Source: Bacteroidaceae bacterium
GTDB taxonomy: Bacteria; Bacteroidota; Bacteroidia; Bacteroidales; Bacteroidaceae
Direction of reading: 5' to 3'
NCBI GenBank assembly: GCA_017645655.1
Contig: JAGCNZ010000096.1
Coordinates: forward strand, 24,187-88,186
Length of the DNA: 64,000 bases
The notes beneath the pieces are model-generated. The model made no database searches and was not told the origin of the DNA. It saw only the letters and a program-made list of their open reading frames with translations. Position numbers and translations under genes: made by a program. Of the stretch, positions 35 through 63,710 are shown one piece after another. Every line of letters begins with the position of its first letter. Positions within the stretch are counted from its first letter, which is position 1.

Positions 35-135
35 CCTACGTGAGACGATTCCAAACGACCCACGCCTAAATTCCAAACGACCCACGTGAAGTTTGTCATT
101 TTAACGTGTGAAAATTGTCAACTTCACGTGTGATG
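35..135. repeat. CACGTG-core phased repeat array, locus A1 (may continue left of the window)
   Basis: Cores TACGTG 37-42, CACGCC 61-66, CACGTG 83-88, AACGTG 103-108, CACGTG 125-130. Spacing 24/22/20/22 bp. The string attccaaacgacccacg is duplicated 22 bp apart. Confidence 0.7.
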
Positions 136-139
136 TTAT

Positions 140-1678
140 CTACAACTCCAGGGGAAGACTCTCGTTGCCGTAGCGGTCGAGGGCTGTGATGGCGAGGTGA
201 TAATTGTGGTAATAAGCGCCGAGCAGGCTGTAGGTGTAGCTTGTGTCGTAGGTCACTCTGACAATGTTTCGGGGATTGCTCGTGTCAACCGGCTGCTTCC
301 GGCTGGCATAAATCACAAACCTGCAATCCTCCGTCTCTGTCTTCCACTCGATTTTCTCGTTGATGCCGCCAACTCTTTCCCTCGACACAAGGTGCGGTTT
401 CTCAGGTTTCGAAGTGCTTTGCCAGGTCATGGGGGGCAGCAGGGCAGGGTAGGGATAGAAGGTCTTCTCGAGATAATCGTAGATGCCTTTGGTGTTGTCA
501 GTCAGGAACTGGCTGCGGAAGTAAGCCTGTCCGCCCAGCCCCATCTGGCGGAGGTAACAGAGCTCGCGCTGGATGATGCCCCAATTCCAGTCCTTCTCTT
601 TCGGATGCAGGAAGTAGATGCCGAGCCCGGGGGCAACCGTGCGACCATAGTCGTGCTCCTGCCAATCGACTGCAAACGGGTAGAAGTGGTCGCCCTGGAA
701 GTACATCATCGGCAACAACATGTCCATGATGCCCTCGCGGAGCCAGCCCTGAGCATCCTGATAAACTGCTCCAAGTGCCGACCAGCCCTTTGCCGAATAG
801 CGACTCAGGTCGTTGTATTTGCCTACGGGAGAGCAACTTATGCGCACCCACGGCTTGATGTCTTTCATGGCTTCATAGGCGTCGCGAACCATTCTGGTGA
901 TGTTGCCTTCTCGCCATGACCGCTTGTCCTGCCCTTTTCCATACTTCTTGTAGGTCGCCGCATCAGCAAAACTCTGGGCATTCTCCGGGTAGCGGATGTA
1001 GTCGAAGTGTATGCCATCGACATCGTAACCCTTCACAATCTCTTGGCACAACTTTGTGAGATAGGCGGAAGAACCAGGCAAACCAGGGTCGAGATAGTAT
1101 TGGTCTCCATGCTTTTTCAGCAGTTCGGGATGTGTCTTGAGCAGGCTTCTCTTGCCCATCTTCTTGGCATTCTCTATCTTGAAGGCAGGCACGGTGACAA
1201 TCCAGGCATGGAGTTCCATCCCGCGTTTATGGGTTTCTTCGATGGCGAAGGCAAGGGGGTCGTAGCCTGGGTCGCGGTCGAAAGTGCCAGTCAGGCAGAC
1301 ATCCCATGGCTCTATCTTGCTCGGGTAGATGACCGAGCCGCGAACCCTTGTCTGCAGAACCACGGTATTGATGCGGCAAGCCTGCAGCTGGTCGAGAATC
1401 TCGCAGAGTTCTTCCTTTTGTGCTTCCCTGGTTGCCAGATTTGTTGCCCTCGTCTTCGGCCAGTCAAGGCCCATGATTGTGGTCAGCCAAACCGCTCTGA
1501 CCTCGTGCTTGGGGGAGGGGGGAGAATATAGATAGGGCAGTTCCTCTCCGTCTTCCTTCAAGGGGGAAGTGACAGTTTTCGGAAGGTAGTCGCTTTTCTT
1601 ATGTTGGTTTTGAGCCTCAGTTTCTGTGCAGAAAAGAGCCCCAACGACACTTAATATTATATAAAATGTGTATTTCAC
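140..1678 (-). CDS. Secreted glycosyl-hydrolase-like family 10 (GHL10/UPF0748, YngK-like) protein
   Basis: 512-aa ORF with an N-terminal signal peptide (KYTFYIILSVVGALFCTETEAQ). The motifs YYLDPGLPG and GIHFDYIRYPE are typical of the GHL10 TIM-barrel family. The start codon at 1678 is GTG and no in-frame ATG lies nearby. Confidence 0.7.
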   Translation of the reverse strand: MKYTFYIILSVVGALFCTETEAQNQHKKSDYLPKTVTSPLKEDGEELPYLYSPPSPKHEVRAVWLTTIMGLDWPKTRATNLATREAQKEELCEILDQLQACRINTVVLQTRVRGSVIYPSKIEPWDVCLTGTFDRDPGYDPLAFAIEETHKRGMELHAWIVTVPAFKIENAKKMGKRSLLKTHPELLKKHGDQYYLDPGLPGSSAYLTKLCQEIVKGYDVDGIHFDYIRYPENAQSFADAATYKKYGKGQDKRSWREGNITRMVRDAYEAMKDIKPWVRISCSPVGKYNDLSRYSAKGWSALGAVYQDAQGWLREGIMDMLLPMMYFQGDHFYPFAVDWQEHDYGRTVAPGLGIYFLHPKEKDWNWGIIQRELCYLRQMGLGGQAYFRSQFLTDNTKGIYDYLEKTFYPYPALLPPMTWQSTSKPEKPHLVSRERVGGINEKIEWKTETEDCRFVIYASRKQPVDTSNPRNIVRVTYDTSYTYSLLGAYYHNYHLAITALDRYGNESLPLEL

Positions 1679-1712
1679 GGCACAAAGATAAGGTTTTTTC
1701 GTGGAATTTTTA

Positions 1713-1720
1713 TATCTTTG
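1713..1720 (+). promoter_or_regulatory. Bacteroidota -7 box (TAnnTTTG) upstream of cstA-1
   Basis: TATCTTTG lies 31 nt upstream of the ATG at 1751. Confidence 0.45.
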
Positions 1721-1750
1721 TGGCGATAAATATCGAAAAAGAAGTTCTGC

Positions 1751-3241
1751 ATGTTCACATTTTGTATTGCGTTAGCTCTCTTGGTGCTCGGATACTTCAT
1801 CTACGGCACATTCGTTGAGAAAGTGTTCGGTGTTGACCCGAACCGCAAGACGCCTTGCTACACGAAGCAAGACGGAGCCGACTACATCCCGATGCCAACC
1901 TGGAAAGTTTACACGGTTCAGTTCCTCAACATCGCTGGCACAGGCCCCATCTTCGGAGCCATGATGGGTGTTCTCTATGGTCCTGCCGCCTTCCTTTGGA
2001 TTGTCTTCGGCTGCATTTTGGGCGGTGCCATGCACGACTATATGGCGGGCATGATAAGCATCAGGCGAGACGGAATGGGCTTGCCCGAGATAATTGGCGA
2101 CGAGCTGGGCAGCGTTTGCCGACTGGTGATGCGAGTTGTGACGCTTGTCCTGATGATTTGTGTGGGCGCAAGCTTCGTGCTGATTCCCGCAGGACTGATG
2201 GAGCAGTTGACGCTGAGGCTGTTCGATGTCGCCGATACCTACCTGATTTGGACGGTTCTCATCCTTGTTTTCTACCTCGCCGTGACGGTCTTTTCCATCA
2301 GTAAAGTCATAGGAAACATCTATCCCATATTCGGCGCAGCACTGCTCATCATGGCTGTCCTCATCGGCTTCGGCATCTTTACCCACGAAGGCAACATCCC
2401 CGACTTTGCCGAAGCCTTCAGCGACCATTATCCAGTCAGCTATACGCCTCTTTTCCCTGGACTCTTCATCACGATAGCCTGCGGAGCCGTCAGTGGCTTC
2501 CATGCCACGCAGAGTCCCATGATGGCGCGTTGTATCAAGAACGAGAAATACGGCCTTCGCTGCTTCTACGGCGCTATGGTAACAGAGGGTGTGGTTGCCC
2601 TTATTTGGGCTGCAGCCGCGATGAAGTTCGTCGATATGCTCGATATAGCGGGTGCCACGCCTTATGAGAAACTCTACAATGCCATGACAGCTTGCGGGAC
2701 AGTCAAGATGAACCCAGGCATTTTGGTTGAGCGAATGTGTAACGACTGGTTAGGTAATGCGGGACTTGTGCTCGCCGTGCTTGGCATCGTGGCAGCCCCG
2801 ATGAGTACGGGCGGCAGCGCTTTCCGGGCAGCACGAATGATTATCGCCGACTTCAGCCACTATGACCAGAAGCCTCTTCTGAAGCGTCTCATCCTCACAG
2901 CCCCTTTGTTTGCTGTTGCCATCGCCATGTTGAACGTCAGCAGCTTCAAGGTCTTGTGGCTCTATGTCTCGTGGTTCAACCAAGTTTTGGCGACCTTCAC
3001 CTTCTTCACAATCGCGCATTTCTTGAAACATCGGACAGACGGAAAAGGCATCCTGCCAAGTTCTTCCTGGCTGATAGCCTACTTCCCCGCAGTCTTCATG
3101 TGTGCCGTGAGCGCCTGCTTCATCTTGATAGACAAAGAGAACGGCTTCGGCCTTGACACCACTTGGGGATATTGGATAGGTGGAATCTTTACCGCCATCG
3201 TAGCCCTTTGGTTTGTGATAAAGAACCTAAATCGTAAATAA
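1751..3241 (+). CDS. cstA: Carbon starvation protein A family transporter, paralog 1
   Basis: 496-aa polytopic membrane protein. The N-terminal stretch YIPMPTWKVYTVQFLNIAGTGPIFGAMMGVLYGP...HDYMAGMISIRRDG is characteristic of CstA. Confidence 0.85.
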   Translation: MFTFCIALALLVLGYFIYGTFVEKVFGVDPNRKTPCYTKQDGADYIPMPTWKVYTVQFLNIAGTGPIFGAMMGVLYGPAAFLWIVFGCILGGAMHDYMAGMISIRRDGMGLPEIIGDELGSVCRLVMRVVTLVLMICVGASFVLIPAGLMEQLTLRLFDVADTYLIWTVLILVFYLAVTVFSISKVIGNIYPIFGAALLIMAVLIGFGIFTHEGNIPDFAEAFSDHYPVSYTPLFPGLFITIACGAVSGFHATQSPMMARCIKNEKYGLRCFYGAMVTEGVVALIWAAAAMKFVDMLDIAGATPYEKLYNAMTACGTVKMNPGILVERMCNDWLGNAGLVLAVLGIVAAPMSTGGSAFRAARMIIADFSHYDQKPLLKRLILTAPLFAVAIAMLNVSSFKVLWLYVSWFNQVLATFTFFTIAHFLKHRTDGKGILPSSSWLIAYFPAVFMCAVSACFILIDKENGFGLDTTWGYWIGGIFTAIVALWFVIKNLNRK

Positions 3242-3278
3242 ATAGTAAATAGTAAATCGTCAAATCGTAAATAAATAG

Positions 3279-5267: not shown

Positions 5268-5391
5268 AATAGTTTAGAGTTGATGGTTTAGTGTTTAGTG
5301 TCAGTTTAATAGTTTAGAGTTTAATAAGAACTTTCAACTATCGACTTCAATACTGTCTCTAAACTCTACACTCTAAACTCTCAACTTTCGT

Positions 5392-6644: not shown

Positions 6645-6830
6645 TTTTGGCGGGCGCTACGAAATCTTTTGGCGGGCGCTACGAAATCTTTTGGCGGGCG
6701 CTAAAAATACACGAGGCACGTTAAGTCTCCCCACGAGACACGTTGGAATGCCCATCGCAACACGTTATGTTGCCAAACTAAACGTGCTAAGTTTACAAGT
6801 CTGCCGTGTTAAGTTCTTGCTCCTCACGGG
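6645..6830. repeat. Phased 22-bp repeat array, locus A2 (degenerate CACGTT/AACGTG cores plus a perfect 22-bp triplication)
   Basis: ttttggcgggcgctacgaaatc occurs at 6645-6666 and 6667-6688, with a partial copy at 6689-6703. It is followed by CACGTT 6717, CACGTT 6739, CACGTT 6761, AACGTG 6781, GCCGTG 6803 and CACGGG 6825. The CG dinucleotides are spaced 22/22/20/22/22. Confidence 0.7.
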
Positions 6831-8423: not shown

Positions 8424-11400
8424 ATGAAACGATTAAACATTACTTTCTTTCTCACCCTGCTCATGAGCATGATAAGCATAAAATCAAATGCTTATGATTT
8501 TGAAGTTAATGGAATCTACTACAATGTTGTTTCCATTGAGGATTTGACATGCGAAATAGCCCCTCAATCTAGCAATCATAGTTATTATTCTGGGTATTTT
8601 GTTATTCCGAGTAATGTACAATACAATGGAAAAACATTGAAAGTAATAAGAATTGGGGATTCTGCTTTCTCCATCAGTTCGATTACTTCTGTGACCATCC
8701 CAAACAGCGTGACGAGCATCGGCAAGTATGCCTTCTCTGATTGTACTGGCATGACCTCCATCAATATCCCCAACAGTGTGACGAGCATCGGCGAAGCTGC
8801 CTTCATTAATTGTTCCAGCCTGACCTCTGTTAACATACCCAACAGTGTGACAAGCATCGGCGGATTTGCTTTCGAGGATTGCACCGGTCTGACCTCAATT
8901 ACCATCCCGGGCAGTGTGACCAGCATCAATAACAATGCCTTCCGTAATTGCACCAGCCTGACCTCCGTCACCATCCCTAGCAGCGATGTCAGCAGCATCA
9001 TCGGGGCAGAAGCCTTCCGTAATTGCACCAGCCTAACATCTATCAATATCCCAAATGTAACATTGATTGGCGCTAGCGCATTCTACGGTTGTACAGCGCT
9101 CACCACCTTGAATATGTCAAATGTTGAAGACATAGGCGAAGATGCTTTCCGTGGCTGTACGTCTATTCACACATTGACAATACCTTCTTCATGTAAGAAA
9201 ATTAAGCACCGCGCATTCAATGGTTGCATAATTCGCAAACTTGTATTGGAAGACTCAAGTAACACATTAAAGCTAGGCTTAAGTGGCTGGCGTCAAGAAA
9301 ATTATGCTGATGAAATTTATTATAAAGACCTCTTTTCTCATTCACAGGTTGACACTCTTTATTGGGGGAGGTCCATTGACATAAACTTCAGCTATGCTAA
9401 TCCTTTGTATCGGGATTATAATGTGCCGGGTATTTTTGGTAATCAAATAAAAAAAATAGTAGTAGGCAACCAGATAACAGATAATGACATTTATAAAGGT
9501 TATTCATCTTCCTTATTTAATTTTAATGGTAACTCAGAACGTCCTCTATATTATAACATCACATTTGGCAAAGGTATTTCAACAGTTCCAAATATGTCAT
9601 ATGACGATAATTTGGATAGTCTGTTCCTTTTAAACGAGACTCCACCGAATGCAAAAGGGTTTTCTAACAAACAATATCTCCATTGCAATTTATTTGTTCC
9701 AAAAGGCAGCAAAACAGCATACCAATCTGCTGATGTATGGAAGAATTTTTGGAATATCCTAGAGTTTGATCCTTATGCGATTTCTTTTGCCGATGCCAAG
9801 GTAAAAGCTATCTGCGTAGCCCAATGGGACACTGACGGTGATGGTGAGTTGAATGAATCTGAAGCTGCTGCAGTTACGGATTTGGGAACAGCATTTAAAA
9901 GTAAGACATCTATTACCTCTTTCAACGAGTTGAAATATTTTACAGGGTTAACAGTTCTTGGTAATGATGCTTTCTCTGGATGCATAAGTCTTACCTCTAT
10001 TGCAATTCCACCTTCTTTGACGAGAGTTAAAACTGGAGCATTTAAGAATTGCTCCTCACTCGCAAAGATTATTGTGACGGATATTGCTGCATGGTGTGGC
10101 ATTATATATGAAGGAAATAGCTATAGTAATGGAGATTTTCCTCTTAACAAAGCTCAGCATCTTTATAGCGATGAAAACATTGAAATAACAAATGTGGTCA
10201 TCCCTGAAAGTGTGACGAGGATTGAACCTCTTGCTTTCCGCGACGCAAAATACATTACTTCAGTTACGATACCTAATAGCGTAACTTACATTGGACGAGA
10301 AGCATTCAGAGGTATGCATCGTTTGACTTCAATCAATATTCCTTTGGGAATTACATCTGTTGAACCATATGTGCTTCAAGATTGTGAAACATTAGCCTCC
10401 GTCAGCATTCCTGAAAGCGTGACAAGCATCGGTGACAATGCTTTCGCTAAATGCTATGGATTGAAAAATGTATATTGTTACTCGGAAGGCGTCCCCAGTA
10501 CTGGCAGTAATGTTTTCAGCAATACAAACGTTGGGGCTGCAACGCTCCATGTACCTGCTGGTTCTGTAAGTCAATACAGAACAACTTCGCCTTGGAGTGG
10601 CTTTGGTACAATTGAAGCTTTAGAAGGAGTTCTTGCCACAGGTATCTCTCTTAACCAGACAACATTGTCATTCAATGCTCCCAATCAAACAGCGACGTTG
10701 GCGGCAACAATAACACCCTCAAATGCCACGAATAAAAATATTACTTGGACAAGTAGCAATACTGCTGTTGCGACTGTCAGCAATGCTGGTGTTATAACTG
10801 CCATCGCAAATGGAATGGCAACCATTACCGCTAAAACAACAGATGGTACGAACCTCACAGCAACCTGTGAGGTTACAGTTTCAATACCTGTTCTTGCTAC
10901 AGGCATCTCACTTAACCAGACAACATTGTCATTCAATGCTCCCAATCAAACAGCGACACTGACTGCAACAATAACGCCCTCAAATGCCACGAATAAGACT
11001 GTTTCTTGGACAAGCAGCAATACTGCTGTTGCGACTGTCAGCAATGCTGGTGTTGTAACTGCCATCGCAAATGGAACGGCAACCATTACCGCTAAAACAA
11101 CAGATGGCACGAACCTCATAGCAACCTGTACCGTGATCGTCAGCGAGGTAATTCGCATAAACATTGTTACATCCAATGCTGGCTATTCTACATTCTATGA
11201 TTCACATTACGATTATGTTTTGCCCAATGGCCTAACAGCACAAGTAGTTACGAATGTATCCAATAACAAACTCGTATATAAGACTATTGCTAATGGTAAT
11301 ACTTCAGGAATTGTACCAAGAGGTACTGCAGTTATGCTTGTTAGTGACAACAAACGCTATGGTACATTTGCATTAACTTCTACAGCAAGTAGTGCCCCTT

Positions 11401-13335: not shown

Positions 13336-13407
13336 AATTCTCAATTCATAATTATCTTCTTCGCGGAAACTCAGGGCGTTGCCTAATTGTGCATTACGAA
13401 TTATGCA

Positions 13408-14235: not shown

Positions 14236-14258
14236 AACTATGAATTATGCATTATGAA

Positions 14259-15962: not shown

Positions 15963-15985
15963 AATTCACAATTCATAAATCATAA

Positions 15986-17837: not shown

Positions 17838-17954
17838 GCATAAATCTTTCTTTTTGCCAACAAAACGACACATTATTATATATTATATGCTCGAAAAGAC
17901 GTTGCTGATGCATATTTAGTCGCAAAAGGTATCTGATGTGAGTCAAAACGTCGG

Positions 17955-18044
17955 CAGTGATGTTTTCAATTATCACGTGTAATATTTTTATTTTAACGTG
18001 TAATATTTCCAATTATCACGTGTAATATTTTCAATTATCCCGTG
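17955..18044. repeat. CACGTG-core phased repeat array, locus A3
   Basis: Cores CAGTGA 17955, CACGTG 17974, AACGTG 17995, CACGTG 18017, CCCGTG 18039. Spacing 19/21/22/22. Unit is CACGTGTAATATTT(T/C)CAATTAT. Confidence 0.8.
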
Positions 18045-18074
18045 TGTAGTTTTGTGAGTAAGCGAATTATTTTG

Positions 18075-27895: not shown

Positions 27896-27951
27896 CAGCC
27901 AGAATTTAACGAGAGAGACCTTTTTCAAGGGCTTTCTTGTTGAACTATGCA

Positions 27952-28086
27952 CACTGCGTTTGCAATCACGGCACGCTGTGTTTGCAAACATCACACGTGA
28001 TGTTTACAATTATTACACGTTATATTTAAAATATTACACGTGATATTTGAAATCATCCCACGGTGTGTTTTCAGACCTGACACGAT
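27952..28086. repeat. CACGTG-core phased repeat array, locus A4
   Basis: Cores CACGCT 27972, CACGTG 27994, CACGTT 28016, CACGTG 28037, CACGGT 28059, CACGAT 28081. Spacing 22/22/21/22/22. Confidence 0.8.
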
Positions 28087-28102
28087 ATAATAAAAACTGA
28101 AT

Positions 28103-40247: not shown

Positions 40248-40311
40248 CGAAAAATTTTGCTTCCGGCAAGACAAAGTGATGTTAATTAACCTTATATTTG
40301 CATACACTGGC

Positions 40312-40446
40312 AGCGTGCTCGCAAAACACGGCACGTTATGTCCGCAAACATCACGTGTTATGTTTGCAATTATCACGTGTAATATTTCAAATATCACGTG
40401 TTAAAATTGCAATTATCCCACGTTATGTTTTTCGGCGTCGCACGCT
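40312..40446. repeat. CACGTG-core phased repeat array, locus A5
   Basis: Cores AGCGTG 40312, CACGTT 40332, CACGTG 40352, CACGTG 40374, CACGTG 40395, CACGTT 40419, CACGCT 40441. Spacing 20/20/22/21/24/22. Confidence 0.8.
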
Positions 40447-40486
40447 ACGATTTCTTCGCCGCTGGCAAAACTTCACGTCAGGGTAC

Positions 40487-50336: not shown

Positions 50337-50480
50337 GCCGAAAAATGCGTCGAAACAGGGCAGATTTTCTGTTGCGGCGTGCTGTGTCGGAAAATATGGC
50401 ACGTTATATTTGAAATATTACACGTGATGTTTGAATTTTCACTACGCTGCGATTGCGGAAACGACACGCCAAAAAGTGTG
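50337..50480. repeat. CACGTG-core phased repeat array, locus A6 (degenerate edges)
   Basis: Cores AACGTG 50342, GGCGTG 50386, CACGTT 50410, CACGTG 50431, CACTACG 50450, CACGCC 50475. The CG dinucleotides are spaced 44/24/21/22/22. Confidence 0.7.
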
Positions 50481-56801: not shown

Positions 56802-57682
56802 AAGCGTTTCTCGTCATGCTCCTATGCCTGCCTGCTTACTCGCAAAGCATGGTGGTAAACACCACTTCGGGCAGTTCGACACCCTATCCGATACGTCAGG
56901 TGGAGCCCCTCACCTTTACCGACGAAACCGTAGAACCCGTTCCGCCATCGGCCAAGATACAGATGAAGCGCAGCATCGTCTTCCTCGGCCACAGCATTTG
57001 GCGCAACGATAACTACTTCGTGAGGTACCAGAACTCGGGTACTTTCGTGACCCCCTTCACTGGCACCTTCAAGGGGAGAGGCTATCAGACGCTGCTCCAG
57101 GAGGTCTTCGACTTTCCCGCCGTCTATTCGCCAGGCCCGGATGGAGGCTATAGTGGCTATTCCCTGGGCGGCACCAGCGCTACCGACGACAAGAGCATCG
57201 CCGTAGTAGCCCAGCAGTCGGACAACGGCTGGCCGAGCATCCAGAACGCCATCTGGACGATAGACTTCATTACAAACGACTTCAAGCGGAACGTTCCCCT
57301 CGGCACTTACGCAGACTACAAGAGCGCGACAGGCCCGTCAACATTCTACGGAGCGGTGCGTCAGTTGTACGACAAGATTAAGGAACTTTCCGGAAGCGAC
57401 GTCATCATCGTCTTCAGCAACGCCACTAAGCGCAACAACTCGAACTATACCAGCACCAGCCAGAACACTGTTGGGTGCACGCTTGCCGACTATGAATTGG
57501 CCTTGCTGACCTGCGCCGCGGCAAACACTAACTGGTATTTCGTGGACCAGAACCGTCTTTCGGGCATCACCGACGAGAACCTCCCCGCCGTGACAGCCGA
57601 TGGTCTTCACCTCAACAACCTCGGCTACAAGATGGCCGTCCAACCCTGGATAGCCGTCCTGCGAACGCTGTCCGATAAATGA
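56798..57682 (+). CDS. SGNH/GDSL-type hydrolase
   Basis: Its ATG overlaps the previous stop as ATGA. It has a signal peptide, FLGHSIW, TNDF and DGLHLNNLGY. Confidence 0.65.
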   Translation: MKAFLVMLLCLPAYSQSMVVNTTSGSSTPYPIRQVEPLTFTDETVEPVPPSAKIQMKRSIVFLGHSIWRNDNYFVRYQNSGTFVTPFTGTFKGRGYQTLLQEVFDFPAVYSPGPDGGYSGYSLGGTSATDDKSIAVVAQQSDNGWPSIQNAIWTIDFITNDFKRNVPLGTYADYKSATGPSTFYGAVRQLYDKIKELSGSDVIIVFSNATKRNNSNYTSTSQNTVGCTLADYELALLTCAAANTNWYFVDQNRLSGITDENLPAVTADGLHLNNLGYKMAVQPWIAVLRTLSDK

Positions 57683-57705
57683 TGTCGAGGCTGAGTTATA
57701 GACAC

Positions 57706-57798
57706 AACGTGCCATGATGCCAAACGTCACGTGGGTAAAATGAAATTATCACGTGTAATATTTCAAATATCACGTGGGTAAAATTGAATTATCACGTG
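57706..57798. repeat. CACGTG-core phased repeat array, locus A7 (inverted relative to A8 and A9)
   Basis: Cores AACGTG 57706, then CACGTG at 57728, 57750, 57771 and 57793. Spacing 22/22/21/22. Confidence 0.85.
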
Positions 57799-57978
57799 GG
57801 CTCTTTTCAGGCCTCACTGCAAGTGTCAGTCGTGATGCCGTTCTGTTAACTACTAATAAACGGCGGGCTTAAACTAAATAAATATGTTAAAAGGTGGTGC
57901 TTGGCGCTGCCTTTTTTTGTTTTTCTCTTGTCGGGGTTGCATAAAGTCCGTTCCTTTGCAGATGAAAAAGCGAATGTT

Positions 57979-58365
57979 ATGAACGAGAAGAAGACTATGA
58001 AACCGCTCACACGCGCTGAGATGGAGGTGATGAACGTACTTTGGGATGCCGATCATGCCCTTACGGTTAATGAGATTGTGGATGCCTATTCCGAGCCCAA
58101 GCCTGCCTACACGACTGTTGCAACCTTCCTGAAAATCCTGGAGGCGAAGGGCTACGTGGAGCACAAGCGCAGGGAGGAGACGGGGCGTACCTTTTACTTT
58201 TCGCCCATGCTCTCGCGCGAGAAATACATCGCCCATGTGGTGAACGATGTGAAAGACACGCTTTTCGGCAGTTCGACTAAGAGTTTCTGCTCTTTCCTCA
58301 TACAGAATGAGGAGCTTTCGGACGAGGAATTGCAGGAGATACTCTCTTTGATTCACAATTCTTAA
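57979..58365 (+). CDS. blaI: BlaI/MecI/CopY family transcriptional repressor
   Basis: Winged-helix MKPLTRAEMEVMNVLW...TVNEIV...YTTVATFLKILEAKGYV. ATG 57979 is preferred over TTG 57901. Confidence 0.8.
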   Translation: MNEKKTMKPLTRAEMEVMNVLWDADHALTVNEIVDAYSEPKPAYTTVATFLKILEAKGYVEHKRREETGRTFYFSPMLSREKYIAHVVNDVKDTLFGSSTKSFCSFLIQNEELSDEELQEILSLIHNS

Positions 58366-58385
58366 TCCGCAAATAACAGTTAACC

Positions 58386-60065
58386 ATGTTGGCTTACATT
58401 ATAAAATCTGCGTTGCTGCTGGCAATCCTTTACGGGAGTTTTGCCCTGTTGTTGAGTCGTGAGACGTTCCATCGCTTCAACAGAATCGCTCTGCTTGGCG
58501 TGCTTGTGGCTTCGTTGGTGCTGCCTTTTATTCAGCTGACGATACAGAAGCCGGAGTTCCTCAGCTATGATGAAGTCCCCATGCAGGACGCTTTTGTCCG
58601 GTCGGACATACTTTACGAAGAGGAATATGACGTTCCCCAACTCGCAGAACTACCAGAGAGGGTAAGCACGTCGGAACAAGATTGTCCTTTCGCTCCTCCT
58701 TTGGAGGGGATGGTGGAGGCAGTCTATCTTCTCGGCGTCTTTGCTTCCCTCGCCATCTTCTTCGTGCAGCTCTTCCGTCTTTGGCAAGAGACGAGGGGCG
58801 GCGTGCATGCGAAAGACGAGCTGGGCAACACGGTTGTCATTCGTGGAGGCAACTTCGCGCCTTACAGTTTCCTACATTATATAATAATAAATGCTTCGGA
58901 CTACGAGCACCTGCGGCAGCCCATCTTGGCTCACGAGCAAGCTCACATCCGTCTCGGACACACGTATGACCTGCTTCTCTTGGAACTCGTGAAGGCCGTC
59001 CAATGGTTCAATCCCTTCGTCTATCTCTTGGGGCGCGACCTGAAAGCCGTGCATGAATACGAGGCCGACGACGCTGTACTTTCCTTTGGCATCGATGCAA
59101 AGACATATCAACTCTTACTCGTGACGAAAGCTGTGGGCAGCCGACTGCAGACGGTCTGCAATAGTCTCAGTCACCATTCACTTAAGAAAAGAATCAAGAT
59201 GATGCACAAAAACAATTCCAACCGCTGGCTGATGGGCAAAGCACTCATCCTGCCGGCTCTCATGGCGCTGGCCTTAGTTGCATGGGCCAAACCAATATCC
59301 GCTGATTCCCCAAAGGAGAGAACTGCCGAGACTATTACTGAAGTAAGCGACCAAGTACAGGACGACAAGCCCGTCACAGTAGCTGTGCCTGGAATGGGAC
59401 TTGTTACGACCGATGAGGTACAAGGCATCTCGAAGAAGAAAATGCTGAACGCCTTTATCCCAAAGGATAATGCAAAAGACTTTATCAAGAAGCACGGGCC
59501 GGCAATTACAGTCTCGTGGCTGAAAGGCACCTGGGTAGTGAAAGGCGACAACTCCTTCGTAGAAGAGCATCCCGATTGCGGCTATCCAATGGCGTTTCAT
59601 ACGAATTTCTATAAAGTCATGCTCGACGGCAAGGAACTCGACATCAACAATCTGCCGGATCTGCCTGCTTCGGCGCTGAAGAAGGTGGAGATGCACTTCA
59701 AGGAAGGCAGTGGAACGGTCAACCTCATCACGAAGCCCGTGCAGATTCCTGCTGGCGTGAAGGGCAACATCAACCCCGAGCTGACCATCCTCTTGACTGG
59801 AACACCTCCGAAGGACAGTGGCGCAAAGACAACTATCTGGGAAAGGCGGGGCAACTTCGATGGCTTCAGCTGGAAGAACTACACTATCTGCTCGTGGAAA
59901 TGGGACGTCGACGACATCAGCGTTCACCTGAAGGAAGTCGCCATCCGCAAGGACCACAGCGTTCGTATCAACGTCTGCAAGGGCGTTCCGCAAGGCCACA
60001 TCGACCGCATCAAAGGCATTATGAACGAATGCAGCGTGACGAACTACAGGTTTGTCAGGCAGTAG
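58386..60065 (+). CDS. blaR1: BlaR1/MecR1-like M56 peptidase-domain membrane sensor with an unassigned C-terminal domain
   Basis: 559 aa with N-terminal TM helices. Zinc motif LAHEQAHIRLGH, followed by EYEADD. The C-terminal residues from about 290 to 559 show no motif I recognise. Confidence 0.8.
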   Translation: MLAYIIKSALLLAILYGSFALLLSRETFHRFNRIALLGVLVASLVLPFIQLTIQKPEFLSYDEVPMQDAFVRSDILYEEEYDVPQLAELPERVSTSEQDCPFAPPLEGMVEAVYLLGVFASLAIFFVQLFRLWQETRGGVHAKDELGNTVVIRGGNFAPYSFLHYIIINASDYEHLRQPILAHEQAHIRLGHTYDLLLLELVKAVQWFNPFVYLLGRDLKAVHEYEADDAVLSFGIDAKTYQLLLVTKAVGSRLQTVCNSLSHHSLKKRIKMMHKNNSNRWLMGKALILPALMALALVAWAKPISADSPKERTAETITEVSDQVQDDKPVTVAVPGMGLVTTDEVQGISKKKMLNAFIPKDNAKDFIKKHGPAITVSWLKGTWVVKGDNSFVEEHPDCGYPMAFHTNFYKVMLDGKELDINNLPDLPASALKKVEMHFKEGSGTVNLITKPVQIPAGVKGNINPELTILLTGTPPKDSGAKTTIWERRGNFDGFSWKNYTICSWKWDVDDISVHLKEVAIRKDHSVRINVCKGVPQGHIDRIKGIMNECSVTNYRFVRQ

Positions 60066-60078
60066 TCCGAAAACTATC

Positions 60079-60191
60079 CACGTGATGATTGAAATTTACC
60101 CACGTGATAAATTCATTTTACCCACGTGATATTTCAAATATTCCACGTAATAATTTCATTTTACCCACGTGACGTTTTACGTCGCGACGTG
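60079..60191. repeat. CACGTG-core phased repeat array, locus A8
   Basis: Cores CACGTG 60079, 60101 and 60123, CACGTA 60144, CACGTG 60166, then TACGTC 60178 and GACGTG 60186. Spacing 22/22/21/22. Confidence 0.85.
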
Positions 60192-60302
60192 CCTGCTGAG
60201 AATCTGCGACTTATTTAGTTTTTGGTTTATACAGTTAGTAAAGCGAGACTCAAAAGGCTTCGCCGGCTCCGATGCGCTGTGACGGTGCATCGGAACCTGC
60301 CG

Positions 60303-61604
60303 TTATTCAGAGGCCTTGCTTGCCCGGAAACCAATGCTCTCCACGGCCTGAAGGATGTCGCTCTCGCTTGCGGAGCCTGAGATGCTTGCCGTCCCGTCGT
60401 GAAGCGAAACCTCTACATGCTCCACGCCCTCAACTGCGGCAATCGCCTTCTCTACGTTCGCTGCACAGTGATTGCAGTTCATCCCCTCTACATTATATAT
60501 TATGCCAGTCGTCAGCCCTGCCTCGTGATGATGCTGATGGCGCCTCCAGGGCCAGAGAGCGCGGGCCATGAGAACGAGCAGCAAAGCCGTGCAGAGGTAG
60601 GAGAACATGCCGATGCCCGCTTCGTGGCAGGCAGCATAGTGCGCCACGGGAGCCGTGAACCATTCGCGGGGCAGCAGATAGTCGATGCCGAAACCGAAGA
60701 GGACTGCTCCCGTGATGATGGAAATCAGGTAGATAAGCATCGAGCGTTTGCCCAAGACCTTGCCCACGACCAGTATGCTGGCAGCGTTGCTTGCCGGTCC
60801 TGCCATCAGGAGAACGAGGGCGGCACCTGGTGTGAGACCCTTCAGCATCAGCGCCAAGGCAATGGGAATGCTGCCTGTGGCACAAAGATACATGGGAATG
60901 CTGAAGAGCAGCACGAAGAGAATGCTGAAGAGCGTATTGCCGTGGAAAATGGTGAACCACGAGTCGGGCACCGCTGCCGTGATGATGCCAGCCACGATAA
61001 GGCCGATTGCGAGCCACTTGCCGATGTCCTCCATCATCTCGTCAAAAGCATAGGAGAGAGCCGAAAGAAGCCTCACCCCAAACCCTCTCCGGGTAGAGGG
61101 ACTTTCTGCATAAGCATTCGCGCATCGTTCGTCCTTGCATAGAGTCGAGTTTCCCTCAAGAACAGTTGCATTCCTGCTGACTTTCTCCCCTCTCCCAGAG
61201 GGGGTGGGGGTAAAGCAATTGCAGAGAGCTCCGCCGAACACGGCAGTCAGCAGAGCTACGACGGGACGGATGATGGCAAAAGGCAACCCCATAAGGCTGT
61301 AGGTGGCAAAGATGCTGTCTACGCCCGTCTGCGGCGTGGCGATGAGGAACGAAATGGTGGCACCCTTGCTGGCACCTTCCTTGCGAATGCCCATCGCTGT
61401 CGGTATGACGCCGCAAGAGCAGAGGGGGAGGGGAACGCCAAACAGCGCGGCAAGCACTACGCTCTTGAGCGAAGGCTCGCCCAGGTACTTTGTATAGACC
61501 TTGCCGGGTATGAACTCATGCATCAGGCCTGCCAACAAAAAGCCCAGCAACAGGTAGGGCGACATTTCGCAAAGTAAAGTCCATATTTCTGATAAGATAT
61601 TCAT
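60303..61604 (-). CDS. Permease (ArsP/DUF318, SO_0444-like putative metal transporter) fused to a C-terminal HMA metal-binding domain
   Basis: 433 aa. VPLPLCSCGVIP in TM2, 8-10 TM helices, and a C-terminal IIYNVEGMNCNHCAANVEKAI (GMxCxxC ferredoxin-like HMA). Confidence 0.75.
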   Translation of the reverse strand: MNILSEIWTLLCEMSPYLLLGFLLAGLMHEFIPGKVYTKYLGEPSLKSVVLAALFGVPLPLCSCGVIPTAMGIRKEGASKGATISFLIATPQTGVDSIFATYSLMGLPFAIIRPVVALLTAVFGGALCNCFTPTPSGRGEKVSRNATVLEGNSTLCKDERCANAYAESPSTRRGFGVRLLSALSYAFDEMMEDIGKWLAIGLIVAGIITAAVPDSWFTIFHGNTLFSILFVLLFSIPMYLCATGSIPIALALMLKGLTPGAALVLLMAGPASNAASILVVGKVLGKRSMLIYLISIITGAVLFGFGIDYLLPREWFTAPVAHYAACHEAGIGMFSYLCTALLLVLMARALWPWRRHQHHHEAGLTTGIIYNVEGMNCNHCAANVEKAIAAVEGVEHVEVSLHDGTASISGSASESDILQAVESIGFRASKASE

Positions 61605-61624
61605 TGCTCTTTATAAATTTCCTG

Positions 61625-61632
61625 CAAATTTA
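61625..61632 (-). promoter_or_regulatory. -7 box (TAAATTTG on the minus strand) for the permease-HMA gene
   Basis: The plus strand reads caaattta, 21 nt upstream of ATG 61604. Confidence 0.5.
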
Positions 61633-61677
61633 CGAAGAAATTGTGAAAAATGAATTGTGAATAATGAATTATATTAG

Positions 61678-61685
61678 TACCTTTG
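61678..61685 (+). promoter_or_regulatory. -7 box (TACCTTTG) for mtnN
   Basis: Lies 24 nt upstream of ATG 61709, and inside the longer track ORF that starts at 61664. Confidence 0.5.
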
Positions 61686-61708
61686 CACCAAAATCATCAT
61701 TTATAGGT

Positions 61709-62398
61709 ATGCAAAAGACAATAGGAGTGCTTACGGCGATGAGCGTGGAGTATCGCCAAGTGGCTGCCATGCTGCAAGAAACGGAAACTATTCAAAGCGG
61801 ACCACAAGAGTTCCTTGTAGGCAAGTTAGGAGAGAGCAGGGTTGTGCTCCTGCAATGCGGCATCGGCAAAACGAATGCGGCGAGCGGCGTGACGAATCTC
61901 ATCATGACGTTCCATCCCGATTGCATCATCTCGACCGGCGTGGCTGGCGGCATCGATGCGCAGCTCGACGTGATGGACGTGGTCATAGGCCGGGAAGTGT
62001 GCTATCACGACGTATATTGCGGCGACGATTGCGACCCGGGACAAGTGCAGGGATTGCCAAGACTCTTCAGCGGCGACCCACGCCTCGTGGAGATTGCAAC
62101 CACTCTCGAGACCGATGTCCACATCGTGCCCGGACTCATCTGCACAGGCGACCAGTTCATTACGAACCGCGACGAGTTGGACGTCATCAAAGGGAAGTAT
62201 CCCCAAGGCCTTGCGGTCGACATGGAGAGTGGCGCCATTGCGCAGGTCTGCCTCCTGTGGAGCGTGCCCTTCCTCAGCTTCCGCATCATCAGCGACACGC
62301 CGGGCGTGAATGCTCACTTCAGCCAGTATCTCAACTTCTGGGACACGATGGCCGACAAGAGTTTCACTGTCACAAAGGAGTTCCTAAGCCGAATATAG
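61709..62398 (+). CDS. mtnN: 5'-methylthioadenosine/S-adenosylhomocysteine nucleosidase
   Basis: IGVLTAMSVE, CGIGKTNAA, STGVAGG and LAVDMESGAIAQV are PNP_UDP_1/Pfs motifs. Confidence 0.85.
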   Translation: MQKTIGVLTAMSVEYRQVAAMLQETETIQSGPQEFLVGKLGESRVVLLQCGIGKTNAASGVTNLIMTFHPDCIISTGVAGGIDAQLDVMDVVIGREVCYHDVYCGDDCDPGQVQGLPRLFSGDPRLVEIATTLETDVHIVPGLICTGDQFITNRDELDVIKGKYPQGLAVDMESGAIAQVCLLWSVPFLSFRIISDTPGVNAHFSQYLNFWDTMADKSFTVTKEFLSRI

Positions 62399-62436
62399 TC
62401 CTTCTCCACTGCGTGACGCAGATTAAACTTATCTGA

Positions 62437-63360
62437 ATGAGCGGCGAACTGCTTTCCCTCCTTGTTGCTGTGATGTGGACCTTCACGGCACTCTTTGCTG
62501 AGGTCGCAAGCAGACGAATGGGCACGCTTGTGCTCAACGTGTGGCGCATGCTAATCACCATCCTGCTGCTCGGCCTTGTGCTCTGGCTGACGTGTGGCAA
62601 GCCTTGGCCTCAATATGCCAGTCCCGAGGTGTGGAAATGGTTCCTGGCAAGCGGTTTCATGGGCTTCGTCTTTGGCGACTACTGCCTCTTCAATGCCTAC
62701 ATCGTGATGGGAAGCCGTTTTGGGCAGCTCTTCATGACGCTTGCCAGTCCGTTTGCCGCCATAGCAGCATGGCTTATGATGGGCGAAACGATGAGTCTGC
62801 TGGCATTGCTCGGCATGATTGTCACGCTGAGTGGCATTGGCATCTCCATCATGGGTAAAGACGACACGGGCAGCCGACACCTGAAACTCCCTCGGAAGGG
62901 ACTCCTGCTGGGCATCGGTGCGGGTATGGGACAGGGCGTTGGACTCGTCCTGAGCAAGCAAGGGCTGATGCATTATGCGGCAGAGATTCCTGCCGAGGCA
63001 ACGGATGTCGCAGCCATGATGCCCTTTGCTGGAACTCAGATACGAGCCGTGATGGGACTGGTTGGCTTCGGCGCAACGCTCCTGTTCTTGCGGAAATGGC
63101 GCAACATGCTTCGTTTCTTCACTGACCTGCGAGGCGCTGCCGCAGCAATGGGAGCCATCCTCTTAGGTCCTTTCTTCGGTGTCAGCCTCAGCCTGATGGC
63201 AGTAGGGATGACGAATGCTGGCGTTGCACAGACCCTGATGTCGCTCACCCCGATTCTCATCTTGTGGCCCTCGCGACTGATGTTCGGCACGAAGGTCAGC
63301 ATGCAGGAGGTGGTAGGAGCCGTCATTGCCGTTGCCGGAGCATCACTTTTCTTCATGTAG
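62437..63360 (+). CDS. DMT superfamily (EamA-like) transporter
   Basis: 307 aa with 10 predicted TM helices in two EamA-like halves. Confidence 0.7.
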   Translation: MSGELLSLLVAVMWTFTALFAEVASRRMGTLVLNVWRMLITILLLGLVLWLTCGKPWPQYASPEVWKWFLASGFMGFVFGDYCLFNAYIVMGSRFGQLFMTLASPFAAIAAWLMMGETMSLLALLGMIVTLSGIGISIMGKDDTGSRHLKLPRKGLLLGIGAGMGQGVGLVLSKQGLMHYAAEIPAEATDVAAMMPFAGTQIRAVMGLVGFGATLLFLRKWRNMLRFFTDLRGAAAAMGAILLGPFFGVSLSLMAVGMTNAGVAQTLMSLTPILILWPSRLMFGTKVSMQEVVGAVIAVAGASLFFM

Positions 63361-63426
63361 AGTGACGAATAAGAACTTTTTGCTAATTTTCTTATCCTCT
63401 TATTTTCTTATTCCCTTAATTTGTTG

Positions 63427-63434
63427 TATCTTTG
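63427..63434 (+). promoter_or_regulatory. -7 box (TATCTTTG) for tRNA-Ser
   Basis: Lies 18 nt upstream of the mature tRNA 5' end. Confidence 0.55.
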
Positions 63435-63451
63435 CACCCGCAATTTGAAAA

Positions 63452-63538
63452 GGAGAGATGCCAGAGTGGTCGAATGGACCGCACTCGAAATGCGGCGTAC
63501 TCTTACGGGTACCCTGGGTTCGAATCCCAGTCTCTCCG
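63452..63538 (+). tRNA. tRNA-Ser (anticodon CGA), class II with long variable arm
   Basis: Acceptor GGAGAGA/TCTCTCC plus discriminator G. Anticodon stem CCGCA/TGCGG with loop CTCGAAA. Long variable arm. T-arm CTGGG-TTCGAAT-CCCAG. No encoded CCA. Confidence 0.9.
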
Positions 63539-63543
63539 CACGG

Positions 63544-63575
63544 AAGGCAACCGAGTTGGTTGCCTTCTTGCTTTG
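63544..63575 (+). terminator. Rho-independent terminator after tRNA-Ser
   Basis: Stem aaggcaacc / ggttgcctt, followed by cttgctttg. Confidence 0.55.
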
Positions 63576-63598
63576 TGCCTGAATACTTCACACTCTAC

Positions 63599-63710
63599 AG
63601 CGTGTTTGCAAACGCGGCACGTGATGTTTGAAATTCTCCCACGTGATAAATTGATTTTACCCACGTGATATTTGAAATATTACACGTGATAATTTGATTT
63701 TACCCACGTG
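63599..63710. repeat. CACGTG-core phased repeat array, locus A9
   Basis: Cores AGCGTG 63599, then CACGTG at 63618, 63640, 63662, 63683 and 63705. Spacing 19/22/22/21/22. Confidence 0.85.

Follow-up and report, generated by a model that had tools for sequence, protein, structure and literature searches.

Iteron and centromere arrays, such as the 22-bp iterons of R6K and pPS10, the 43-bp sopC repeats of F and the 20-bp ParR repeats of pSK41, consist of 3-7 tandem sites about two helical turns apart, often palindromic, to which dimers bind cooperatively. Each replicon has one or a few such arrays, located beside the gene of the binding protein. The parS site, TGTTNCACGTGAAACA, has CACGTG at its centre. 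BrickBuilt of Porphyromonas gingivalis is a minisatellite/MITE of tandem 23-nt bricks that is always intergenic, with 19 copies in each genome and as many as 22.8 bricks (Klein et al. 2015, PMC4596501). Among the REP superfamilies is clustered dRS3, and the dRS3 of Neisseria is the CGTC-1 REP family (PMC3733652). Bacteroidetes own a RAYT subclass, 2.6, whose REPs are ‘atypical’ and lack GTAG (PMC6006769).

The window considered here is a stretch of 64,000 nucleotides from a gut or rumen Bacteroidales genome. An earlier note had described nine non-coding loci in it (A1-A9) as phased arrays of 21-22-bp units built on CACGTG, and knew of no described family that matched them. This last claim held in Rfam, phage, plasmid and literature searches; no Rfam family matched, even at E up to 10, and the phage and plasmid collections contained no similar record. 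We put at roughly 0.55 the probability that the nine loci are copies of a genome-specific, undescribed family of non-coding intergenic repeats, similar in kind to REP/BIME, dRS3/NIME and BrickBuilt elements.

Architecture and family membership of the arrays

The phased arrays were confirmed as a whole, far beyond chance. CACGTG-N16-CACGTG, with at most one mismatch, has 14 matches in the window against 0.16 expected, and none of 100 shuffles gave 14 or more. Chains of at least three cores 21-23 bp apart number seven, against 0.14 per shuffled window, and 23 of the 27 exact CACGTG sites of the window lie inside arrays. Tandem Repeats Finder returned a period of 22 or 21 bp at every one of the nine loci (Table 1). 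The unit is a 22-bp, imperfectly palindromic brick with an A/T-rich spacer, present 4-7 times per copy. Its phased cores are real, but they are better written (A/G)CGTG than CACGTG. ACG carries 1.4-1.7 bits of information against 0.1-1.1 bits in the spacer, in an alignment that we anchored on ACG. Conservation is highest at the centre of the arrays and falls off outward.

In A4-A9 the bricks are arranged round a single dyad, the 21-bp step over ATATTTNAAATAT. The 22-22-21-22 spacing signature is exact in A7, A8 and A9 and fits A4 if one- and two-base core variants are allowed. The earlier note had stated that the 21-bp step always spans ATATTT(C/G)AAATAT; this is true of A4-A9, with C, G or A at the centre, and the element has its dyad centre at this step. 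“Always” is too strong, since the step of A3 spans ATATTTTTATTTT instead and A1 and A2 are without a step of this kind.

Table 1. Coordinates, build and surroundings of the nine arrays (positions in the window; super-periods from Tandem Repeats Finder)
Array	Span	Strand	Units and cores	Dyad centre	Surroundings
A1	35..140	+	degenerate, ~5 units; cores near 38, 62, 84, 104, 126		ends 5 bp from stop codon of GHL10 gene (140-1678, minus strand)
A2	6645..6830	+	old, degenerate; ACGT(T/G) cores 6717/6739/6761/6781/6803 within 6711-6830		
A3	17950..18050	-	4-5 units; cores 17974/17995/18017/18039		between divergent ilvD and GH59 gene
A4	27950..28090	+	6-7 units	28028	in leader of the essential gene proS, between its conserved -7 box GTACTTTTGCA and start codon
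A5	40310..40450	-	6-7 units	40388	between lptF/G promoter region and fba terminator
A6	50365..50470	+	short copy, 2 good cores, degenerate flanks	50412	between convergent genes
A7	57700..57813	-	5 cores (22-22-21-22): 57706/57728/57750/57771/57793	57764	3' UTR of SGNH/GDSL hydrolase gene, upstream of its own intrinsic terminator (57889-57915)
A8	60075..60195	+	5 cores (22-22-21-22): 60079/60101/60123/60144/60166; 43-bp super-period	60135	starts ~10 bp past blaR1-like stop codon, between convergent genes
A9	63597..63720	+	5-6 cores (22-22-21-22): 63618/63640/63662/63683/63705; 43-bp super-period	63674	directly past tRNA-Ser(CGA) terminator

The nine loci had been presented as sharing one build. 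Eight of them, A1 and A3-A9, belong by homology to a single repeat family: with a profile of A4-A9, A3 is recovered at E 5e-8 and A1 (at 52-140) at E 4e-4, and no further copies turn up in the window. A2, which the profile missed, is a degenerate array in the shared 22-bp register. In its first part (6645-6703) a divergent, G+C-rich unit, TTTTGGCGGGCGCTACGAAATC, is repeated perfectly 2.7 times, in one 22-bp register with the degenerate ACGT-core units; with this perfect duplication the array recently gained a unit at its edge. Similarity between copies declines with the chromosomal distance between them (Spearman -0.555, permutation p 0.0008), with A7/A8/A9 and A3/A4/A5 as clusters and A9 most similar to A8 and A7. 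This fall of similarity with distance points to local copying or short-range gene conversion.

The overall dyad of A4-A9, with about three cores per arm, recalls a classical MITE in which two ends, each with about three 22-bp transposase-binding sites (cf. Tn7, Mu), were fused back to back. Presence/absence polymorphism (see below) is consistent with such an element. So are related composite palindromes, with 3+3 CACGTG cores, of which ‘Porphyromonas’ UMGS genomes contain several copies. This origin is nevertheless very improbable. Conservation that is highest centrally and decays outward is the reverse of a MITE, and the arms vary in length. No conserved termini, terminal inverted repeats or target-site duplications were definable at the arrays, and strict transposition is therefore unsupported. 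No transposase gene recurs beside the arrays, nor do BrickBuilt/IS5-type terminal repeats occur there.

Genomic position, folding and promoter-like sequences

All nine loci are intergenic, although only 10.2% of the window is; arrays occupy about half of its gaps longer than 230 bp. The earlier note had located them at transcription-unit boundaries and had placed them correctly with respect to stop codons and the tRNA, but nothing beyond intergenic placement could be substantiated. The six loci classifiable from ORF-based gene calls comprise two divergent, two co-directional and two convergent gene pairs, with no preference for any junction type among them. Neither cargo nor a recurrent neighbour gene was found at the arrays, and their orientation relative to flanking transcription is mixed. 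A boundary or roadblock element, also suggested earlier, is weakened by the lack of junction bias and by the location of A4 in the proS leader and of A7 before its own gene’s terminator.

These locations of A4 and A7 would suit an element acting at the RNA level, as stacked hairpins that stabilise mRNA or attenuate or terminate transcription, or as small RNA genes. E. coli REP elements have such an RNA-level effect. Folding is better than in shuffled controls for A5 (z -4.4/-5.5), where the entire element forms one long imperfect hairpin, for A8 (about -2.9) and for A9 (-2.6). However, A7 folds like its shuffles (z -0.4), and both strands of the arrays fold about equally, as any palindromic DNA would. 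It is the sequence ACGTG that is conserved, not just pairing, and A9 and A5 lie beyond terminators. Given also the mixed orientation and the lack of an Rfam family, we consider an RNA element distinctly unlikely.

The complete Bacteroidetes promoter, TTTG-N17-23-TAnnTTTG, was found in no array. Isolated -7-like boxes (TAnnTTTG) occur three times in 1.06 kb of arrays, in A3, A5 and A6, about four times as densely as elsewhere in the window, but none has a -33 TTTG at promoter spacing. The suggestion that the arrays act as weak promoters is thus not supported, and we give almost no credence to the arrays being promoters or products of chance or assembly error: independent assemblies of several samples reproduce them identically, and their phasing is far above chance.

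Turnover among relatives and wider distribution

The comparison of orthologous intergenic regions that the earlier note had proposed showed presence/absence polymorphism between sister lineages. A4 is absent from five relatives (L123-L125, L128 and L129) in which the promoter and start codon are conserved. L123 carries an array between its AAA_14 and transglycosylase genes, a gap that is free of arrays in the window. Neither comparison of filled and empty sites is clean, since additional non-array DNA goes with each polymorphism. In strain L003, A4 is longer by one 22-bp unit at its left edge, and an array differs by one unit between L130 and L131. At the A3 site, the sister lineage has an orthologous array of different flavour (L123:1800-1910, profile E 7e-6), and at the A5 site a 22-bp array of another flavour (L123:17962-18075); array flavours at orthologous sites differ between lineages whose flanks are still alignable. 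Sites downstream of blaR1 orthologues hold other flavours, or else lack an array and show a conserved hairpin. Among strains of the same species A7-A9 are identical and A6 differs by a single base in one strain, so turnover is not fast at the strain level.

Across 325 kb from relatives, chosen without regard to repeats, tandem-repeat periods have their peak at 22 bp (27 arrays), and RCGTG occurs in 20 of 43 arrays against 2.5 expected; outside the window, it occurs in 12 of 32. Phased CACGTG arrays with a 22-bp period are widespread in Bacteroidales MAGs. In a genome-collection scan with CACGTG as the sole hexamer, 52 of the 54 Bacteroidales arrays among the matches listed have a 22-bp period, and only six of the 54 fall within an open frame of 200 codons or more, compared with 77% for random positions. 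The CACGTG arrays of other phyla among the matches listed mostly have a 21-bp period. The 22-bp period is found even in arrays with unrelated units, something that common descent does not account for. Phage contigs contain sets of 3-5 palindromic CACGTG sites spaced 21-22 bp, which seem to resemble operator or iteron sets, and 3-4 phased TGTCACGTGACA sites.

Core and period are conserved while spacers have diverged, both within the window (in the old copies A1 and A2) and across relatives. Their retention while spacers drift implies a putative sequence-specific protein, probably dimeric, that would read the cores. Cooperative binding of dimers on one DNA face, as put forward in the earlier note, is a plausible prediction. 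The likeliest reader would be an enzyme responsible for copying or converting the arrays, much as RAYT acts on REPINs; a host protein with a role in the cell would account equally well for the conserved core and phase.

It is rather unlikely that the arrays form a lattice of phased sites selected on the host for a conserved Bacteroidales dimeric DNA-binding protein (nucleoid-associated, acting at gyrase/topoisomerase sites, ParB/Noc-like or iteron-binding), and just as doubtful that one RCGTG core is read every two helical turns in a cooperative assembly. Such selection would agree with the conserved core and period, with the preponderance of 22 bp in the Bacteroidales arrays listed over the 21 bp usual elsewhere, with the recurrence of arrays at orthologous intergenic sites of the sister lineage and, if they are indeed operator- or iteron-like, with the phage site sets. 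The 22-bp iterons and tandem centromere repeats are likewise bound as phased cooperative sites. However, no protein was identified, arrays are dispensable at individual sites and show no consistent placement with regard to promoters, terminators or gene orientation, and flavour turnover outpaces that of the flanks, unlike in conserved operators. Similarity by distance suits copying or conversion better than site-by-site selection, and the cores drift round the helix, because 22 bp slightly exceeds two helical turns.

A REP-like repeat family is the best supported kind, because the loci are homologous, dispersed and intergenic, vary in unit number, are present or absent, and are lineage-flavoured. 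The REP/MITE-like family of short bricks considered in the earlier note is thus retained as REP-like, though neither as a classical MITE nor as a tagged REP. Like minisatellites, the arrays grow and shrink by complete 22-bp units, in the manner of slippage or unequal exchange, and they are gained and lost from intergenic DNA across short evolutionary distances, with neighbouring copies probably spread and homogenised by local copying or short-range gene conversion. Effects on neighbouring genes, through hairpins in leaders and 3' UTRs or DNA bending, would be by-products and not the reason for the arrays.

Comparison with described repeat systems

With iterons, centromeres and parS the arrays share 3-7 tandem phased sites and, in the case of parS, the CACGTG centre. 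They differ in their frequency, about one array in 7 kb of chromosome, and in lying among housekeeping genes without a gene associated with them; the flanks of their cores do not match parS. The dRS3 units of Neisseria are not joined head to tail but interspersed with longer RS segments; they bear a CGTC tag and are unrelated in sequence to the arrays. Both have palindromic units of about 20 bp in large intergenic clusters, with no dedicated transposase known (PMC3733652).

REP, BIME and REPIN elements of E. coli and Pseudomonas are likewise short imperfect palindromes, often clustered (PMC3733652, PMC6006769), confined to intergenic DNA in hundreds of copies per genome, with species-specific sequences that co-evolve in a lineage and possible hairpins in DNA or RNA. 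The arrays differ in that no GT[AG]G or CGTC tag was found once per unit, in that the conserved sequence lies at the palindrome centre of the 22-bp unit and not at a hairpin foot, and in that units are strictly head-to-tail in phase. A motif search of ~1.7 Mb, covering only a small part of any single genome, found no HUH-Y1 ORF or RAYT gene, and no mobilising or converting enzyme came to light. The subclass-2.6 REP of Bacteroides xylanisolvens, GTTCCAGCGGATTTATAATCCGCTG, is unrelated in sequence to the arrays.

Compared with BrickBuilt, the arrays are without leader, tail or the BrickBuilt terminal repeat; they comprise 4-7 units each, their ACGTG core is palindromic, a dyad marks their centre, and their density is that given above. 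The likeness lies in the order Bacteroidales, common to both, in the abutting head-to-tail bricks (23 nt in BrickBuilt, 22 here), in imperfect repeats with conserved and variable positions, and in many dispersed intergenic copies whose brick number varies by locus and strain.

Phasing and anatomy of the arrays

At the nine loci of the window, A1 to A9 from left to right, direct reading gives an ACGTG-type core each 22 bp, in units arranged head-to-tail. Pairs of the form CACGTG-N16-CACGTG with at most one mismatch occur 14 times in the window against 0.16 expected, a count reached in none of the shuffles, and runs of at least three cores spaced 21-23 bp apart are found seven times versus 0.14 per shuffled window. 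Exact CACGTG is concentrated in the arrays (23/27 sites in the window). Tandem Repeats Finder (TRF) gave a period of 22/21 bp at 9/9 loci, with a super-period of 43 bp in A8 and A9. With phasing so far above the shuffles and the period present throughout, the nine arrays described in the earlier note were borne out with minor corrections. The 22-22-21-22 spacing reported there is exact in A7, A8 and A9, but A4 follows it only when one- and two-base core variants are permitted. Avoidance of CACGTG as a restriction site was considered and rejected; outside the arrays there are 4 copies versus 7.1 expected, a difference that is not significant in 64 kb.

A sequence profile of A4-A9 recovered A3 (E 5e-8) and A1 (E 4e-4), and over the window it missed A2 and found no further copies. 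The profile and the phasing thus place eight loci in a single family of homologous copies. A2, which is either old or divergent, shares the 22-bp register, and the duplication at its left edge, with a G+C-rich unit, is evidently recent.

Every unit is an imperfect palindrome, and A4 to A9 each have one element-wide dyad, which lies in the middle of ATATTTNAAATAT and corresponds to the 21-bp step. Conservation falls outward along the arms stacked on this dyad, and arm length varies; the arms of A4-A9 share no terminal sequence, nor are their flanks common to copies. A 2-nt offset between the two arms gives the elements a polarity, with five copies oriented one way and three the opposite. In a stack of 47 units ACG(T)(G) carried 1.2-1.7 bits versus 0.1-1.1 bits in the spacer, the core value being inflated by anchoring of the stack on ACG. 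A5 in its entirety forms a single long imperfect hairpin (z -4.4 and -5.5); folding of the other copies is weaker than that of A5 and the two strands fold alike, and it is improbable that the arrays are RNA hairpin elements.

The suggestion that the arrays could act as weak promoters did not hold. Arrays of sigma-AB promoters were rejected on a consensus scan, in which six matches to TTTG-N17-23-TAnnTTTG (the -33 TTTG plus the -7 box) lay in the window and none in the arrays, which thus contain no complete Bacteroidetes promoter. Given also the excess of phased cores over shuffled windows, promoters or an artefact are a very remote explanation. Operators of BlaI/CopY type were considered as well, as A7 and A8 are inverted around blaI-blaR1 and the core TTACAcgTGATA makes up half of a TACAnnTGTA cop box; the idea was dropped because no such box lies close to blaI or to the arrays and because in relatives the two sides differ in flavour (unit sequence variant) or are empty.

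Genomic setting and variation between strains

The neighbours of the arrays are ordinary chromosomal genes, namely ilvC, ilvD, proS, lptF/G, fba and an OmpA-family gene, together with a blaI/blaR1-like pair, an ArsP permease and tRNA-Ser, and identical flanking genes are present in metagenome assemblies. Of named proteins, those of 'MAG: Bacteroidaceae bacterium' are the nearest to the encoded ones. All nine arrays lie in the intergenic 10.2% of the window, which confirms an intergenic bias. An array is present in roughly half of the window's gaps above 230 bp, and arrays number about one per 7 kb, in the window as in relatives. A metagenome scaffold has an N-run exactly at A4, with the same 22-bp unit on both sides, and arrays appear to interrupt or mislead the assembly and scaffolding of short reads.

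The earlier note also proposed a boundary or roadblock element bound by protein. At the six loci classifiable from ORF-based gene calls, divergent, convergent and co-directional junctions are equally frequent (2/2/2), so that no preferred junction type is seen. A7 is located after a stop codon and before the terminator of the same gene, and A9 beyond the tRNA terminator. The proS -7 box GTACTTTTGCA is kept in relatives, and A4, being downstream of it, is thus within the leader of an essential gene. These positions and the lack of junction bias argue against an obligatory role as roadblock or terminator, and the boundary or roadblock proposal is not supported.

Whole units are gained and lost between strains. 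A4 has exactly one additional 22-bp unit in strain L003 (L-numbers denote loci of strains, relatives and other organisms), and downstream of blaR1 L130 has three units versus two in L131; such changes in the number of head-to-tail units are those of a VNTR. Entire arrays are also present or absent. A4 is missing from five relatives (L123-L125, L128 and L129), including L123 and L124 although their ProRS is 98% identical, and the reverse case is an array of the sister lineage L123, between AAA_14 and transglycosylase genes, whose site in the window is empty. Both filled/empty pairs include extra non-homologous DNA, so that junctions and a target-site duplication cannot be defined. At 22 metagenomic loci downstream of blaR1, arrays of differing flavours (TTTTCCCACGCGTGGGAAATTA, ACGT-core units or CACTAGT units) or none were found, depending on lineage. 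The array-free blaR1 sites contain a conserved hairpin, GGAATTCCGNCGGTTCCGGTGCGCTGGGAAGTGCGCCGGATTCTGCCGTTATA, which could be a terminator or some other structured element under conservation. The L123 sites that correspond by orthology to A3 and A5 are filled by arrays with alignable flanks and different units (GGCACGTGACGATTGCCAACGT and AGTTAAATGCAAACGTGGCACT), and L123:1809-1901 is still detected by the family profile (E 7e-6). In the same-species strains L152-L155, A7-A9 are identical and A6 differs by one base in one strain; a clean insertion polymorphism was sought in these strains and none was found.

Presence/absence polymorphism at A4, at the L123 site and at the blaR1 sites is a feature shared with MITEs; terminal inverted repeats at defined ends were sought in the dyad-stacked arms and are lacking, and a MITE with back-to-back ends is accordingly quite improbable. 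Arrays of the window are less similar the farther apart they lie on the chromosome (Spearman -0.555, permutation p 0.0008), and two similarity clusters, A7/A8/A9 and A3/A4/A5, are distinguished.

Other repeats were also observed in the window. The tandem duplication after fba shows no sequence relationship to the ACGTG arrays; it starts with GAGCTTGTTGTTGC, a near-copy of the fba 3' end. The AATTCAT heptamers occupy very short spacers at the starts of minus-strand genes (an operon ending in ilvD and a ribA/B-like gene), and look like a second dispersed repeat motif sited at translation-start regions. Opposed heptamer runs resemble heptads found in L123 and flanking composite elements of 'Porphyromonas' UMGS genomes. 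Two of three coding tandem repeats fall within a BspA-type LRR / Big_2 surface protein. Dockerin domains, unusual for Bacteroidota, occur in adjacent genes.

Location of array dyads and other repeat features (window positions unless an L-numbered locus is given)
Feature	Location	Character
Dyad of A4	28028	beside proS
Dyad of A5	40388	between lptF/G and fba
Dyad of A6	50412	
Dyad of A7	57764	near blaI-blaR1
Dyad of A8	60135	near blaI-blaR1
Dyad of A9	63674	after tRNA-Ser
A2, left part	6645-6703	perfect 2.7-copy duplication
Tandem duplication	40540-40625	43-44 bp; directly downstream of fba stop; TRF sub-period 22 bp
AATTCAT tandems (minus strand ATGAATT)	13321-13353, 14239-14267, 15956-15987, 38221-38250	4-5 copies each
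Opposed heptamer runs	5286-5386	GTTTAGT/GTTTAGA ... CTCTAAA; between convergent genes
GTTTAGA/CTCTAAT-like heptads	L123:9903-9937	
Coding tandem repeat	8696-8977	69 bp x 4.1; in surface protein
Coding tandem repeat	10629-11129	261 bp x 1.9; in surface protein
Coding tandem repeat	46756-47814	360 bp x 3.0
Surface protein gene	8424-11768	BspA-type LRR / Big_2
Array in sister lineage	L123:8275-8351	
Scaffold gap at A4	L004:1945-2395	N-run
Array-free blaR1 sites	L133, L137-L140, L142, L144-L146, L149-L151	hairpin in first ~100 bp
Intergenic arrays, unrelated units	L125:11730-11858; L126:8548, 9713, 14465, 19230; L128:15027-15314; L145:11487-11647; L117:4513-4749	period 20-22 bp
Phage palindrome sets	L158, L172, L179-L181; L163, L170, L175	3-4 palindromes, 21-22-bp spacing
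Composite element	L007:7146-7303, L014:1281-1438, L075:5315-5472, also L110, L009, L027, L120, L174	one copy in viral contig
Other-phyla array	L015:7471-7560	Streptomyces sp.
Other-phyla arrays	L022, L026, L093, L103, L108, L114, L122	Amycolatopsis
Other-phyla arrays	L020, L028, L043, L049, L089	Thermoanaerobaculia

The 22-bp period beyond the window

When one genome per species was scanned for CACGTG triplets spaced 21-22 bp apart, at least 118 loci were obtained, and about half of those listed belong to gut or rumen Bacteroidales MAGs. These comprise Prevotellaceae, RUG 'Bacteroidales', RGIG 'Bacteroidaceae', UMGS 'Porphyromonas', Alloprevotella, Phocaeicola and Tannerella. Among the matches listed, the period is 22 bp in 52/54 Bacteroidales loci and 21 bp in 46/64 loci of other phyla. 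Long open frames cover 6/54 of the listed Bacteroidales arrays versus 77% of random positions; the Bacteroidales CACGTG arrays are non-coding. That the arrays are a binding lattice of a host protein, or an iteron-type array, is consistent with the conserved core and phase, but no gene recurs beside the 54 Bacteroidales arrays among the matches listed, and a host lattice is considered unlikely.

Since the CACGTG scan is core-biased by design, a second sample was taken, consisting of 325 kb of relatives chosen via protein homology and not via repeats. Tandem-repeat periods in this sample peak sharply at 22 bp (27 arrays, with 9 at 21 bp). The core (A/G)CGTG (RCGTG) is present in 20/43 arrays versus 2.5 expected from shuffled units, and in 12/32 arrays outside the window; the non-RCGTG arrays have unrelated units. 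The period, retained in arrays with unrelated units, is therefore more general than the core. Examples among intergenic arrays of relatives are CCTAGGAAAG dimers, TAATCCCTAGGCCTTCCGAAA, GAGGTTGTACAAGTATAAGCCC and GCATCTCGACAAACCGAGACGG (10.8 copies), and a period of ~22 bp seems to be a general trait of Bacteroidales minisatellites of any sequence. A 6-bp palindromic core in every 22-bp array was rejected, as only ~11/45 non-CACGTG arrays have one, equal to chance.

The whole of IMG/VR yielded only 30 stretches with three phased CACGTG cores, none of the window's flavour, and the family is therefore not phage-borne. Related phage contigs carry sets of (C)TGTCACGTGACA-type palindromes that look like operator or origin iteron sets. 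'Porphyromonas' UMGS/MGYG genomes contain several copies of a palindromic composite element of ~200 bp, with three CACGTG cores per arm at 22 bp, 21-bp TTCCTCCGAAGTTTCATTTGA repeats in the centre and CTCTAAT heptads outside. Among the matches listed, other phyla have their own multi-copy 21-bp CACGTG-core arrays, and at the Streptomyces locus three to four parS-like GTTTCACGTGAAAC palindromes follow one another every 22 bp.

Interpretation and relation to known systems

Among the readings offered in the earlier note, REP/MITE-like bricks are the best fit, with homologous copies, gain and loss of units, presence/absence between relatives and lineage flavours. The arrays probably represent an undescribed superfamily of palindromic 22-bp bricks in tandem, akin to REP/BIME and BrickBuilt (probability about 0.55), confined to intergenic DNA and decaying in similarity with distance. 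Short-range gene conversion or local copying would homogenise and seed the arrays. The conserved core and period may be recognised by a dimeric sequence-specific protein, for which a copying or conversion enzyme would be the most economical candidate, by analogy with RAYT-REPIN. A cooperative-binding geometry would be a reasonable reading of the putative sites.

A broader and rather unlikely possibility is that the arrays act in cis for a system not yet recognised and common to the order Bacteroidales, in which a conserved dimeric protein would recognise a single (A/G)CGTG core per 22 bp and cover hundreds of intergenic lattices per chromosome. These lattices might anchor the nucleoid or its topology, or the system might be a domesticated copy/conversion machine, comparable to RAYT-REPIN but run by another enzyme. 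Co-evolution of sites and protein would then give lineage-specific flavours, and the 22-bp period of unrelated arrays, along with the 23-nt BrickBuilt, would be the footprint of one mechanism.

Gut and rumen communities are dominated by Bacteroidales, whose intergenic repeats are almost undescribed, BrickBuilt being the sole worked example from this order found in the literature. The arrays fill about half of the longer intergenic regions here, lie within leaders and 3' UTRs of housekeeping genes and vary by whole units between strains, and are relevant to MAG assembly, VNTR strain typing, spurious small-ORF annotation and the reading of transcript boundaries. The conserved ACGTG core and fixed period point to a putative sequence-specific protein, which, if found, would be either a novel enzyme of repeat propagation or a novel factor in the chromosome organisation of Bacteroidales.

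The earlier statement that no described family matches the arrays was upheld in the collections and literature searched. Rfam at gathering scores returned tRNA-Ser alone for the whole window, and with the limit relaxed to E 10 for 57600-63800 nothing overlapped A7-A9; plasmid and phage records gave no match to A9 (BLASTN, sensitive mode), and no account of 22-bp or CACGTG repeats was found in the literature on Prevotella and Bacteroides. BrickBuilt of P. gingivalis, with 23-nt tandem bricks, leader and tail segments and IS5-type ends (PMC4596501), is nearest in build and host order. The arrays differ from it in their 22/21-bp period, in lacking IS5-type terminal repeats and in having flanks not common to copies; sequences like its terminal repeat (GAGACCTTTGCA, up to two mismatches) occur 10 times versus 6.6 expected, and 0 lie beside arrays. 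REP/BIME and dRS3/NIME are nearest in lifestyle, but their terminal tags are missing from the arrays (PMC3733652). Imperfect palindromes, many copies and intergenic confinement are shared with REPs, but a REP tag (GT[AG]G or CGTC) once per unit is not seen in the arrays: GT[AG]G/C[TC]AC occurs 22 times in ~51 units at no fixed position (19.7 versus 13.6 per kb in the window), and CGTC/GACG six times, under the window density. Bacteroidetes have their own RAYT subclass with atypical REPs, the published example of which is unrelated to the arrays (PMC6006769), and no ORF with HUH and Y motifs (RAYT HUH-Y1, PF01797) was found in the window and ~1.7 Mb of loci (genome fragments). Iteron and centromere arrays are nearest in geometry. 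They are single-locus systems linked to the gene of their binding protein. Given these differences from BrickBuilt, REP/dRS3 and iterons, the arrays are regarded as new kin of a known kind, belonging to no named family.
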